Shown here in pieces: positions 51,001 to 57,000 of a stretch of DNA of 64,000 nt (positions are counted from its first letter, which is position 1; every line of letters begins with the position of its first letter). A program made the position numbers. This stretch comes from Waddliaceae bacterium (GTDB lineage: Bacteria; Chlamydiota; Chlamydiia; Chlamydiales; Waddliaceae), in assembly GCA_963822595.1 (NCBI GenBank), contig CAWGIG010000001.1:1-64000 (forward strand), written 5' to 3'.

Positions 51001-54000
51001 AGAAACAATGATTTCTTTTCTTTTTTCTTCCTCCGCGTCCCGGTGTCTCCGCGACTCCGCGTTTAACAGTTTGTATAAAAAGGCTATTTAAAATTAGCAT
51101 TAGTATTCGGATATTCATTAAACTTCTCGATAATTCCCTAGCGTGATAATCTGTTTATAAAAAAAGGAATAACCTTGAAAACACTCATCGGGATCGCCAT
51201 TTTCCTTAATGCATTTTCCGCACTTTGCGCAGACAATGTACGCACCCTCTATATTAGCTTGGATCCATTGTCAGTTTCTCAGCATTTAGCCCTTCACGAG
51301 CTTTACCCGGATACTCCCGAAGGACAAGCAGCCCTTCAAAAAGCCTGGGCGCTCCTTTCACAAAAGGAGGCTCCTTCATATAGCACGTCTATACCCGTCT
51401 CAGCCTCCGTTATTCATGGAATTATCGCCCTCATCAATAAACAACCCGATCAGCAAATCCCCCAACTCACTACAGAGCAATTAAATGCCATCTCCTCCCT
51501 GGCACAACATCTTCCCAACCGCAAATTGAAAGGACACTATGCAAAAACGGAAGAAGAAATACTGCCTTTACCCCCTGAAGAAATCGATCTTGCGCGCGCC
51601 CTTTTTCTCTCACAGGGTTTAGCTACCGATCTTCAAAATTATGAAGCTATGCTTGATCTCATGGCGCTTCAAATATTGGTCAGACTCCCCCCAAATGCAA
51701 CACCTTATGACAAAATCCGCGAGATGAATCGCTTTATTTTTGATGAATTAGGATTTCGTTTTCCTCCTCATTCGCTCTATGTAAATGATATCGATTTATA
51801 CACGTTTCTTCCTTCGGTGTTAGATTCAAGGCGCGGTGTTTGCCTTGGGGTATCTGTTCTTTATCTTTGCTTGGCCCAACGCCTGGACTTAAGACTAGAA
51901 ATGATAACACCTCCAGGCCACATTTATATCCGCTATCATGAGGGTGATGAAATCATCAATATCGAAACAACAGCCCGGGGCATTGATCTTAAATCCGAGA
52001 TATACCTTGGTATCGATACACGTTCTTTGCAAGAACGAAATATTAAAGATGTTGTCGGGTTAACCTATTTCAACCAAGCTTCTGTCTATTGGCAGAGAAG
52101 TGAATATCAAAAGGGTCTCGATTGTTTTTTAACGGCAAAAAAATACCTTCCTGAAGATAAGCTTTTGAAAGAACTCATGGGCTATAACTACTTAATGCTT
52201 GGTGAGAAGGAAAAAGGAGAAGAACTCCTAAGAGAAATTAAAGATTATATTCCTGATTACGCTGTAAGCAAAAATACCCTTGCCGAAGATTATCTTGTCG
52301 AAAACGTGAATGTCGATGGTATTAAGACCATTTTTAAACATGTCGATGAAAAACGAGAATCGATTTTGGAGAAAAAGGAAGAGCTTGAAAAGATTTTGGC
52401 CAAATATCCCCGCTTTCGTGAAGGTTGGATGAGTCTTGCTATCACCTGGATACAGCTTCATCGCCAAAAAGAAGCCTTAGAAGCTTTGAAGAAATATCAT
52501 GAGTTGGACCCGAATAACCCAACAGCAGAATATTACCTTGCGATGCTATATGCCAGCCGCCTGGACTTTAATCGCTCTTGGGAACATTTTCTCAAGACAG
52601 AGGCTATTGTCACTGAAAGAGATCATGCACCGAAGGCATTGAAGCACCTCAAAACGGAACTGAACTCGTTGTCGCCACAGTAAAACCCTCTTTGTCCTTG
52701 ATGAAAGTTGCTTATAAATGTTATTAATAATTTAAACTAAAGAGGATTTATGAAAATATACACACGAACTGGCGACAAGGGAGAAACATCGCTTTACACT
52801 GGACAGCGCGTTCCTAAAAACGACCCTCTAATTGAAGCTATAGGCACCGTTGACGAATGCAATACCTCGATTGGAGTCGCAGTTTCATTTTTGCCTCGAG
52901 AATCTAAATTTGACGAGACTCGACATCAGCTTGAAATCATCCAGCATGCCCTTTTTGATCTTGGAGCAGCCCTAGCCACACCACGAACGAGAGCCACGGC
53001 AGCGAAAATAGAAAATACCCGCTTTGATGAAGAAGCCATCGGATTCCTCGAACAATGGATCGATAAGATGGAGGAGTCCCTTCCAAAACTAAAAACTTTT
53101 ATTCTGCCTGGGGGAACCCCTAGTGGAGCATTTTTACATCTCGCCCGCAGCATCTGCCGTCGCGCCGAAAGACTTGTCATTCCCCTGCACGATCATGCTG
53201 AGGTCTCCCAAAAAATATTGATGTACCTCAATAGACTATCCGACTATCTATTTGTCCTCTCCCGCTATGTCAACAACCTAACCGGCACCCCGGAAACCAA
53301 TTGGAAACAGCATCTTTCAAAAACGCAAGAATCTTAAAAAATGGAACCGTTTGATTTACGACTCTGGCCAGGACACCTTCACGCAGGACTCGATCCTGCT
53401 CACCCGCATGTTATCGACCAAGTAGCTATCGATTCGCGCCGTTTGTACACTAAAAACTCCCTTTTCGTCGCACTTAAAGGCGCACAATCGGATGGTCACC
53501 AACATTTGCATCACGCAGCAAGTGCCGGGGCTAAATACGCTTTGGTAAAAGAAGATTGGAAAGGTGATTCTAAAGAGCTTAAACTTCTCAGAGTTGAAAA
53601 CCCCCTTAAAGCCCTTCAAGAGATTGCGAAAGCGTATCGGATGCAAATGAAATGCAAGGTGATTGCTATCACGGGATCTTATGGGAAGACCATGGTCAAA
53701 GACATGTTACTGGCCTTATTAGAAACCACACACAACACCGTAGCTTCACCTGAAAGTTTTAATAGCCAAATCGGTGTTCCATTAAGTCTTCTAACCATTC
53801 GCAAAGAACACACGGTAGCCCTCATCGAAGCTGCCATTTCAGAATTTGGAGAGATCGAAACCCTCACAGATATCATTCAACCTGATTTTGCTATCCTCAC
53901 CCATGTGGGAAAAAAACATTTATCTTCCCTTGGAAGCCTTGAAAAAACAGCGGATGAACTCACAAAATTGCTTATAAAAATCCCTAGAGAAAATTGGGTG

Positions 54001-57000
54001 ATTATCCCACATGATCCCTACCTTAGTAAAGAAATAAACTCTCAGAAGATTTTCTGGAATGATATATCTCAGGAAATCCCTCATGCATTATCAACTCCGC
54101 AGCAAACATACAGAATCGATTTTCCCGATGGAACTTCTCACAATGGAACTATCCCCTTTGGCTTTTCCTATTTTGTCGACCTCTTGAATATGACAATTAA
54201 ACCAGCTTGGAAATTCGGAGTCTCTTCCGCAGAAATCCGCAATACTCTTGATAAGCATACTCCGGAACCCATGCGAACCGAAATATGGCAATCTGCGCAT
54301 GGCGCCACATTTATTAATGATAGCTATTGTTCCGATCCCCAATCCGTGGATGTATCGCTGAAATATTTTGATCAGTTTCCCCGTTCGAAGCGAAAGATTT
54401 TCATTTTTGGAGGCATGCGTGGAAAGGAAAAGCACGATTCCGAATATCGTAGAATCGGAGAAGCTATTGATAAATGCGGAGTAGATAATCTTATTCTCAT
54501 AGGGAACTGTCCCCTGAATTCCTTGATTGAATCGATAAAAACAGCAGAAGTGTCGCGACATCCCACTTATGAAAGTGCCTTTGAGCATCTTAAGTTACAT
54601 ATAAAAAATGGAGACACCATCCTTATCAAAGGAGAAAATAAACAGTCTTTAGACTCTTTGACAGCTACATTCAATGATAGCATATGCACCAATCAATGTT
54701 TGATTAATTTTGCAGCTATAAAATCCAACTTGAGCACAATACAAAAAAAAATAGGCAATCAAACACGGATTATGGTCATGGTGAAAGCAGAGGCCTATGG
54801 AACAAATAACCTACGCTTGACCTCGTTTTTGAAATCGTGTGGCATTGATATTTTCGGTGTGTCTTATGTTGACGAAGGCGTAGCCCTTCGAACTTCCGGA
54901 ATCAATGAAGCTATTTTCACATTGAATGCAGCCCCTTACGAAGCCTCTAAAGTTGTGAAATGGGATTTAGAAGTTGGCATCAGCGATAAAAATACTGTTG
55001 TTGCCATCGGCGCAGAAGCTGCAAAGGGTGGTAAAATCGTAAAGGTGCACTTGCACGTAGACACGGGAATGAGTCGCCTTGGATGCCGTCCGGAAGAAGC
55101 CTTAACACTTGCCAAAATGATTGAGGCCTCTCCAAACCTTAAGCTCGAAGGGATACTCACTCATCTGGCTTGTGCTGACAATCCTGATGAAGATAGTTTT
55201 ACGCATAATCAAATTATGACTTTTGATCGAACAATAAAGACTATTGAGGATTGCGGCATAGAAATTCCGTGGAAGCACGCTTGCAATTCGAGTGGGATGA
55301 TCCGTTTTAATTTCTCGCAATATAACATGATACGCATAGGGCTAGCGATTTTTGGATTATATCCTTCAGAATCAGCAAAAGATGGCTTAGACCTACGTTT
55401 AGCGGTATCTTTAACTTCAAGAATTGTCGGCATCAATCATTGTAAATTTGGAGAAACCATTAGTTATGGAAGGAGTTATAAAGTAGAAAAGGAGAATCAG
55501 AATATTGCTGTTGTCCCTATAGGGTATTTTGATGGTCTGCACAGGAATTACAGTGGAAAGGGCTATGCCATTATCCGGGGACATAAGGCGCCGATGGTTG
55601 GGACCATTTGCATGGATTTCATGATGCTTGATGTGACGGACATTCCAGAAGCATCGATTGGAGGTCCTGTATTAATTTTTGGAGAGGATGAATACGGCAA
55701 TTATCTACCCCCTGAGGAGTTAGCTTCTAGTGGAAATTCGATTATTCATGAGTTGATGACCTGTCTAGGGCCCCGCATCCAACGCGTCTTCATCTACGAA
55801 GAAGCTAAACAGCAAAGATAAAAAAGAGGGAAGCGCATTTCTTGACATTGCAAATGTCGCAGTCGAATCAGTCGCTCTTCGCGATGCGCTCCGAGCTCTG
55901 TGGTAAAACCTAATCTACCCACGGTTCCGATGCGTCACCGTGGGCTTTAACGGGTACGTCCTTCGCGATGCGCTCCGGACTCATGAATAATGAAGTGACT
56001 TCACGAGCACGGAATAATTAAGTAATTTCACGAGTATGGAATAATTAATTTCCTGAGTCGGGAGCGCATCGCGAAGGACGTATCCATTAGAGCCCACCGT
56101 AACACATCGGAACGATGGAAAGATTTCCTGAGTCCGGAGCGCATCGCGAAGGACGTATCCATTAAAGCCCCGGGTGACGCATCGGAACCCGGGGTAGATT
56201 AAGTGTTACCACAGAGCTCGGAGCGCATCGCGAAGAGCGACTGATTCGACTGCGACATTTGCAACGTATGAGCTCAGTCAGGGCTATCAAACGCATTGAC
56301 ATTCATGAGATTTTTCAATACAATCTTCCTTTTAAAAACTTTAACTTATGAATGATACAAAACCTCTTTCGGGTCCTAACTACATAGTATCACTCCTGTT
56401 CGCCATGACAGCCGTTCTAATTTCAAGCTTAGATATCTATATCCCCGTTTCACCACAACTTGCCGATATCTTTTCCGTAAACGAAAATATCTTGAAACTG
56501 ACCTTCTTGGTAGGTCCCCTCGCATCCGCGCTCATCGGCATCCCGGTAGGATTCCTCTCCGATCGCATTGGCAGACGCCCCCTCCTTTTATGCGGCCTTT
56601 CACTCTATATTTTAGGCACCTTCACCTGCTCCCTAAGCGATTCCATCACCCATTTTTTCATTGGAAGATTCGTGCAATCTCTTGGCGTAGGAGGCCTTTT
56701 AGTCCTAAGCAGCACCATCCTATCCGACCTGTTCACCGGAGTCTCCCTAGCCCGATATATGGGGCTGTATGCCCTACTTTTTCCTCTTGCCTTTGCTATT
56801 GCTCCCATTGTGGGAGCACACGTCTACACCTGGTTTGGATGGCAGGCTATTTTCTGGACCCTCCTGTCATGCATTACCCCGATAGCTGTCTTGCTTTTTC
56901 TCTTTTTGCCCGAAACGCGGAAAGAGCCAAATCACAGACCTATACTGTTTCTATTAAAAAAGCTAACATCTTCCAAATTAGTGGTATGCCTAGCTCTCAC

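Follow-up and report, generated by a model that had tools for sequence, protein, structure and literature searches.

What is a MurF-like ligase module doing on the same polypeptide as an alanine racemase? The question is raised by a stretch of DNA from a Waddliaceae bacterium of the order Chlamydiales (assembly GCA_963822595.1, contig CAWGIG010000001.1, positions 1 to 64,000 of the forward strand), which was analysed over its full 64,000 nucleotides and is called the window below. At 53341-55821 on the forward strand, the window encodes an 826-residue protein whose N-terminal half resembles the peptidoglycan ligase MurF and whose C-terminal half resembles alanine racemase (Alr). We consider it fairly probable that the racemase half supplies D-alanine (D-Ala) and that the N-terminal module is an accessory MurF paralogue, not the main MurF. 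We see the module as accessory because its ligase site is eroded in the nearest group of relatives, because a stand-alone Alr is found at the same locus in other Chlamydiales, and because one Prevotella replicon encodes a canonical MurF in addition to the fusion.

Architecture and family of the fusion gene

The initial annotation had described the gene as a single in-frame fusion, and this description held: the ORF listing of the assembled window contains one open reading frame (ORF) with an ATG start and zero internal stops. Pfam annotation returned the domains in the order originally claimed, that is, Mur-ligase N, M and C followed by Ala_racemase_N and Ala_racemase_C. Both signature motifs that had been pointed out were recovered as well, namely the P-loop motif ITGSYGKTMVKDML, with GSYGKT at residues 112-117, and the pyridoxal phosphate (PLP) site motif MVMVKAEAYGTN, with MVKAEAYG at residues 480-487 and K482 as the PLP lysine. 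Assignment of the whole ORF to the Alr-MurF family, as a MurF-like module plus alanine racemase, draws on the ORF listing, on an end-to-end profile match and on identity to a database protein. The NCBIfam equivalog NF008897 (PRK11930, "bifunctional MurF/alanine racemase") scored 814.7 bits against a cutoff of 804, with residues 4-820 aligned to positions 3-822 of the 822-position model; the margin is only ~10 bits. The E value of 8e-245 excludes a chance match. The window protein is like this family in domain order, length and end-to-end match, and its racemase catalytic residues are identical.

A protein identical to the window fusion (P0001) is already present in NCBI and ENA, and at least 1,725 homologues were found at E ≤ 1e-10. 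The best 120 of these are all full length (819-854 residues), 55-79% identical at a coverage of at least 99%, and come from many independent assemblies; several homologues carry the JGI name "Alr-MurF fusion protein". A search of 1.84 billion cluster representatives returned 9,140 matches at E ≤ 1e-30, the top 150 being mostly full-length fusions with 30-57% identity. In a plasmid collection, seven records matched with at least 80% query coverage, all of them from Bacteroidota (Phocaeicola, Riemerella, Prevotella, Bacteroides), and five of the seven are annotated "bifunctional ... ligase/alanine racemase". The nearest genomes are metagenome-assembled genomes (MAGs) labelled Chlamydiales, Parachlamydiales and 'Waddliaceae'. 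The top match of a genome scan is a Waddliaceae MAG, 85% identical across the last 162 residues, and in the closest relative (P0003, 77% identity), chlamydial type III secretion genes lie just upstream on the contig. The gene is not an unusual arrangement; it is a member of a catalogued Alr-MurF fusion family, already known, and an ordinary annotated gene. The literature searched by names, locus tags and Mur ligase/racemase topics yielded no experimental paper on an Alr-MurF fusion, and for this large family in Bacteroidota and Chlamydiota the label 'bifunctional MurF/Alr' was inferred by databases.

Could the fusion be an artefact, with two neighbouring genes joined by misassembly or a frameshift? 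The related MAGs appear, from their record names, to derive from long-read metagenomes, which are prone to indel errors. However, the identical architecture was found with full coverage in all 120 best homologues, which stem from JGI, Logan, ENA and NCBI assemblies, in cultured Bacteroidota, and in our own translations of five loci (L001, L002, L010, L012 and Prevotella L016). Moreover, an indel would break an ORF rather than make one of 826 residues with an end-to-end alignment to a curated model of 822 positions. Since the single-ORF architecture recurs in all of the best homologues and in the loci we translated ourselves, an artefact is very unlikely, to the point of being negligible.

As a separate observation on the family, the RGI prediction in PLSDB assigns the tag 'vanT gene in vanG cluster', at ~34% identity, to Alr-MurF fusions and to ordinary alr genes alike. 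Such tags (for example, at 3914-6391 of L016, which corresponds to NC_022111.1 520370-522847) are likely false-positive resistance calls.

The racemase half

The PLP-binding barrel, Ala_racemase_N (PF01168, 204 bits, E = 2.9e-60), spans residues 455-675 (54703-55365, forward strand) and contains the PLP lysine K482 (nucleotides 54784-54786), Y486, R579, H608 and R665. It is followed on the same strand by Ala_racemase_C (PF00842, 123 bits, E = 5.7e-36) at residues 688-816 (55402-55788), which contributes the second catalytic base Y709 (nucleotides 55465-55467) and M758-D759. Alignment with E. coli Alr placed K34, Y38, R129, H159, R209 and Y255 of that enzyme at K482, Y486, R579, H608, R665 and Y709, respectively, and these six residues, M758 and D759 are invariant in 132 of 132 full-length representatives of the family. 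We read the C-terminal half as a catalytically complete and presumably active PLP-dependent alanine racemase, the residues being observed and the activity predicted from them.

The assignment is complicated by two substitutions. A carbamylated lysine (K122 in E. coli, K129 in Geobacillus stearothermophilus) and Tyr354 are frequent in alanine racemases, albeit not universal, and Tyr354 gates specificity in the G. stearothermophilus enzyme. The window protein has His572 (nucleotides 55054-55056) at the K122/K129 position, so that the carbamylated lysine is not present, and His803 (nucleotides 55747-55749) occupies the Tyr354 gate position. Histidine stands at the former position in 37 and at the latter in 27 of the 45 closest representatives, and is rare at both in the distant branch. 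These histidines could indicate a serine or broad-spectrum amino-acid racemase, an alternative that also draws on a PDB search in which the serine racemase VanT-G (4ECL, 215 bits) narrowly outscored the alanine racemase 4Y2W (208 bits). The profile evidence, in contrast, supports the initial assignment of the second half to alanine racemase over any other PLP-dependent enzyme. The alr equivalog TIGR00492 was passed with 310 bits against a cutoff of 168, whereas all VanT models were failed (NF033131, 287 versus 460 bits; NF033132, 196 versus 900 bits; NF033133, 160 versus 750 bits). Furthermore, the protein lacks the VanT membrane domain, and its gene neighbourhood contains no van genes. The residue matching Tyr354 is Asn in VanT and Gln in 4Y2W, and because a solved alanine racemase thus also deviates at the gate, we do not count His572 and His803 as disqualifying. 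Overall, we regard a serine or broad-spectrum racemase as improbable, and there is a small chance that the specificity of the racemase half is broader.

The MurF-like module

Among Mur ligases, MurF is the one that the N-terminal half resembles most. Its best single-domain NCBIfam match was murF, although the TIGR01143 score of 268.2 bits stayed under the cutoff of 288.6. PDB matches comprised MurF chains and, as the best one, the MurF part of the Bordetella pertussis MurE-MurF fusion (8F5D, E = 4.8e-31); one further, marginal match was a MurT-type 'Mur ligase family protein' (6FQB, E about 1e-5). Identity to E. coli MurF is 26.6% across 440 residues, and hhalign against an E. coli-anchored MurF profile gave a probability of 100% over 438 columns. 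All three domains lie on the forward strand. The Mur_ligase N-terminal domain, the type that binds UDP-MurNAc-peptide (MurNAc, N-acetylmuramic acid), covers residues 25-100 (53413-53640; PF01225, a marginal 21.1 bits against a cutoff of 21). It carries an IDSR...LFVALKG...DGH motif, corresponds in alignment to domain 1 of E. coli MurF and shows strong conservation in the consensus of the near group defined below. The central ATP-binding domain was placed at 53668-54255 by Pfam Mur_ligase_M together with hhalign to E. coli MurF; the Pfam match itself covers only residues 110-232, corresponding to profile positions 1-131 of 200. This domain contains the P-loop G112-S-Y-G-K116-T117 (53674-53691), recognised by the G-K-T conserved in the family. 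The Mur_ligase_C domain (PF02875, E = 3.4e-13) at residues 311-432 (54271-54636) holds R312 and N326-D327-S-Y-C-S-D, where the canonical sequence is DDSYNANP.

Seven residues of E. coli MurF (K111, E158, H188, K202, N282, N285 and R316) guided the comparison of the ligase site. Aligned E. coli MurE has identical residues at all of them, which fits their status as Mur-ligase invariants. Like E. coli MurF (PDB 1GG4), the module has the three-domain Mur-ligase layout, and it keeps the P-loop residues K116/T117, the Mg ligands E163 and H193 (E. coli E158 and H188), R312 (R316) and D327 (D331). Unlike E. coli MurF, it is fused to a racemase, lies outside a dcw-type cluster and differs at three places in the site. 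In several alignments, L207 (53959-53961, forward strand) takes the position of the carbamoylated lysine (K202 in E. coli MurF, K225 in MurE), a residue reported to be essential in MurD, MurE and MurF and compensated with Glu in MurC and Mpl (PMC3060825). NDSYCSDP stands for DDSYNANP. Finally, Y277-F-V-D-L-L-N283 (54169-54189, forward strand) replaces the HNxxN motif (E. coli H281-N282-I-A-N285), with F278 at N282 and L281 at N285 in hhalign and two MAFFT runs. On these alignments, the MurF-like half has a partly non-canonical predicted active site. The original designation of this half as MurF-like is thus upheld as regards similarity, but the protein falls under the murF cutoff, is without the carbamoylated lysine and has no recognisable HNxxN. 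The reading that HNxxN has merely disappeared lost ground in an alternative MAFFT alignment and was partly restored by hhalign.

Residues 188-193 (53902-53919) read H-V-G-K-K-H, directly preceding and including the Mg-binding histidine. The 14 close relatives printed show H-[IV]-G-[KR]-K-H where E. coli MurF reads N-L-A-A-A-H, and 106 of the 120 closest relatives have histidine at the N183 position, alongside loss of the carbamoylated lysine at 202. A lysine in H-V-G-K-K-H might possibly be a relocated lysine.

The ligase site varies between branches of the family. The 132 full-length representatives were split by search rank into a near group (n = 45), which is chlamydia-like with at least about 36% identity, and a distant group (n = 87) with about 30-35% identity, whose sampled members are Bacteroidota. 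The G-K-T positions of the P-loop are kept in 131-132 of the 132 representatives, the P-loop lysine and E158 are invariant, and H188 is found in most members; the window protein shares all of these. The full set of K, E, H188, K202, N285, R316 and D331, by contrast, is present in 65 of the 87 distant members and in only 1-2 of the closest 45. Bacteroidota members, which are only about 28-30% identical to the window protein, thus mostly keep the complete ligase set including K202 and N285. Lysine at position 202 was found in 81 of the 87 distant members, versus none of the 120 closest relatives. Within the closest 45, H188 is retained in 29, K202 in 28, R316 in 30 and D331 in 20 (with Glu in a further 14). 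The 120 closest relatives, for their part, all have the P-loop K/T, E163 and H193; R312 is present in 118 of them and D327 in 112, the remaining 8 having Glu at the latter position. Erosion of the ligase site is not an artefact of sequence quality, because the racemase residues of the same proteins are invariant. Against the closest DNA relative (L010), the nonsynonymous rate (dN) was 0.20 for the N-terminal and 0.13 for the C-terminal half; synonymous rates (dS) were saturated, so the comparison uses dN only. Identity of the N-terminal versus the C-terminal half was 38.0 versus 49.7% in the near group and 27.3 versus 34.6% in the far group, an equal ratio. The MurF-like module is under purifying selection, neither a dead relic nor in neutral decay.

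The genomic locus provided a second line of evidence. In most chlamydial relatives, a gene X sits in the conserved order (tilS-)lptF-lptG-X-M32 carboxypeptidase. X is the Alr-MurF fusion in L001, L002 and L012/L013, and a stand-alone alr encoding 390-451 residues in L003 (a Waddliaceae MAG), L005 and L006. The stand-alone racemases are 41-46% identical to the window racemase half, and have no MurF-like module. In a neighbour-joining tree built from racemase domains, with E. coli Alr as the root, they fall within the fused clade. Their nesting points to repeated secondary loss of the N-terminal module, and the module is dispensable in these lineages. In the lineage of the window, the fusion gene has been relocated relative to the lptF-lptG locus. 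In L003, the lptG upstream of the stand-alone alr (8811-9937) is split into two ORFs of 205 and 164 residues, by a frameshift or a long-read assembly error.

The third line comes from Bacteroidota. Prevotella sp. oral taxon 299 (NC_022111.1, 1.77 Mb) encodes an 826-residue fusion at about 520 kb, which retains the H188, K202 and N285 equivalents, and a canonical 471-residue MurF at about 1.54 Mb with the motifs GTNGKT, NLNNDIGVP, AYNIAN and DAYNANP. Both canonical murF and the fusion also occur in the records of Bacteroides finegoldii and Phocaeicola massiliensis. In at least one Bacteroidota genome, with both genes on one replicon, the fused module is a MurF paralogue extra to the housekeeping MurF. 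A Saprospiraceae locus (L007) was rejected as a fusion relative, as it contains a 502-residue ORF with a Mur-ligase-C-like C-terminus, possibly murE, followed by a canonical murF; the latter served as Bacteroidota MurF query. In the 64-kb window and the fetched chlamydial loci, tblastn with E. coli MurF and MurE found the fusions only and no second Mur ligase.

If the N-terminal module is an accessory MurF paralogue, the protein could work as follows. Alanine racemases are obligate dimers, and the racemase half would dimerise and provide D-Ala for peptidoglycan. The N-terminal module would probably bind ATP and UDP-MurNAc-tripeptide. It may be a ligase of weak or auxiliary activity; alternatively, it may serve in binding/regulation or as a scaffold and thereby link the supply of D-Ala to the Mur pathway. 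The main D-Ala-D-Ala addition would be carried out by a canonical MurF encoded elsewhere in the genome. A stricter version for the chlamydia-like branch is a conserved pseudo-Mur-ligase that binds ATP/UDP-MurNAc-tripeptide to regulate or localise the racemase, so that D-Ala supply would be coupled either to the pool of precursors or to the machinery of MreB, MraY and MurG. Such a module would explain why the P-loop and E158 are invariant as H188, K202, R316 and D331 drift, and likewise the purifying selection and the loss in several lineages. We nevertheless hold the pseudo-ligase to be rather unlikely.

Several points weigh against an accessory role. NCBI curators named the family bifunctional, and the MurF-like module could still be an active ligase, given the kept P-loop, E163, H193, R312 and D327. 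The K202 position varies in genuine MurF, being Asn in B. pertussis 8F5D and Glu in the Saprospiraceae canonical MurF; loss of K202 alone therefore proves nothing, and we rejected it as a diagnostic of an inactive enzyme. The Glu before this position (E206) is conserved in 126 of the 132 representatives and might stand in for the carbamoylated lysine. One MAFFT run with a 3-residue gap put D280/N283 under the Asn pair of HNxxN, making the equivalence at this site alignment-dependent. The division into a near and a distant group is our own cut, and the racemase-domain tree is without support values. Lastly, if the 1.3-Mb genome has no separate murF, of which the window contains none, the fused module must be the working MurF.

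The rival that gains from these points is a truly bifunctional protein: next to the alanine racemase, its N-terminal module would be a working UDP-MurNAc-tripeptide:D-Ala-D-Ala ligase and possibly the sole MurF in this small genome. Through the fusion, the D-Ala branch would be co-localised or co-regulated with the final ligation in the cytoplasm. MurF as the best match among Mur ligases, the residues retained in all or nearly all of the 120 closest relatives, an intact UDP-MurNAc-binding domain, purifying selection, genuine MurFs without the carbamoylated lysine and the passed NF008897 cutoff all speak for it. They are countered by the missed murF cutoff, by the absence of HNxxN and K202, by sister lineages without H188, R316 or D331 or even the whole module, by the canonical MurF that Prevotella has in addition to the fusion, and by Ddl, which separates the Alr and MurF steps. 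On balance, we consider a bifunctional enzyme possible, yet we lean against it.

Related fusions, gene neighbourhood and significance

D-Ala is not a substrate of MurF, since Ddl acts between Alr and MurF. The Alr-MurF fusion therefore does not unite consecutive steps, and the idea put forward initially, that D-Ala production is joined to the D-Ala-D-Ala-adding enzyme, is biochemically loose. The MurE-MurF fusion of B. pertussis (8F5D), the MurF part of which is likewise without Lys at 202, and MurB/MurC of Verrucomicrobium spinosum (PMC4803751) are also fused peptidoglycan-precursor enzymes, but they do unite consecutive steps. Closer to home, Ddl is fused to MurC in many Chlamydiae (PMC5814848), and Ddl activity of MurC-Ddl was shown experimentally (McCoy and Maurelli 2005, as cited in PMC3935232 and PMC5814848). 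MurC-Ddl, too, joins a Mur ligase to an enzyme of the D-Ala branch, although its partners differ from those of Alr-MurF. One Alr or DadX orthologue each was described in Parachlamydia, Protochlamydia and Waddlia and none in Chlamydiaceae and Simkania, and GlyA of C. pneumoniae was characterised as a potential D-Ala source (PMC3935232). Genome reduction, offered earlier as a rationale for the fusion, is contradicted by this distribution, as the full-length matches in the plasmid collection are all Bacteroidota, and Chlamydiaceae and Simkania are without Alr or DadX.

Immediately upstream of the fusion lies a gene of the Cob_adeno_trans family (cobalamin adenosyltransferase-like; 52750-53337, forward strand; PF01923, E = 7.8e-64), whose stop codon ends 3 nucleotides before the fusion ATG. 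No promoter-like site was found between the two genes, and they are probably co-transcribed; an 11/12 promoter-like match precedes the downstream major facilitator superfamily (MFS) transporter gene. The order Transglut_core2/TPR protein, Cob_adeno_trans gene, fusion is found both in the window and in its closest relative (L010/L011). Among the scanned window ORFs of at least 200 residues and the adenosyltransferase gene, no domains of cytoplasmic peptidoglycan-precursor enzymes (ddl, other Mur ligase) were detected. The initial annotation had further linked the fusion to a Tae4-like peptidoglycan amidase in the window, which did not hold up. The 357-residue Tae4-domain protein (24229-25302, reverse strand; amidase domain at residues 203-306) is encoded 29 kb away on the opposite strand, beside a gene for an 898-residue protein with a C-terminal PF09000 'Cytotoxic' (colicin-type RNase) domain. 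We read this pair (24229-28516, reverse strand) as putative toxin/effector genes unrelated to the fusion.

Other parts of the window hold several small paralogous families and gene runs. Three tandem paralogues of ~300 residues with 41-52% mutual identity lie at 32113-34912 (reverse strand), and adjacent paralogues of 470 and 205 residues, 49% identical across ~190 residues, at 48808-50848 (reverse strand); both sets are without a Pfam match. The C-terminus of a 740-residue ORF (35561-37783) resembles a 273-residue ORF at 4282-5103 with 33% identity. Effector-like or eukaryote-like domains are concentrated at 330-1418, 11727-12917, 15968-16900, 17600-22217, 41777-43522 and 62054-63415, and comprise Fic/DUF4172, a leucine-rich-repeat-like stretch, a HipA_C kinase, two large HEAT-repeat proteins, a Ser/Thr protein kinase and a PLD-type phospholipase. 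At 57504-61767 (reverse strand), a family-1 glycosyltransferase, ORFs of 306 and 373 residues without Pfam match and a PhyH-type dioxygenase are tightly packed or overlapping, and this run may be a small modification or biosynthetic cluster.

Against the background of a known family, the novelty is mild and confined to the MurF-like module's erosion in a particular clade, its repeated loss and, in the literature searched, the lack of experimental work on its role. For the organism, the finding is of modest importance: this would be an uncultured chlamydia-like bacterium with a dedicated alanine racemase, unlike Chlamydiaceae and Simkania. For the family, the MurF-like module is of some interest to cell-wall specialists, because its label comes from databases, because a canonical MurF co-occurs with the fusion in at least one Bacteroidota genome, and because the ligase site of chlamydia-like members is non-canonical or eroded.

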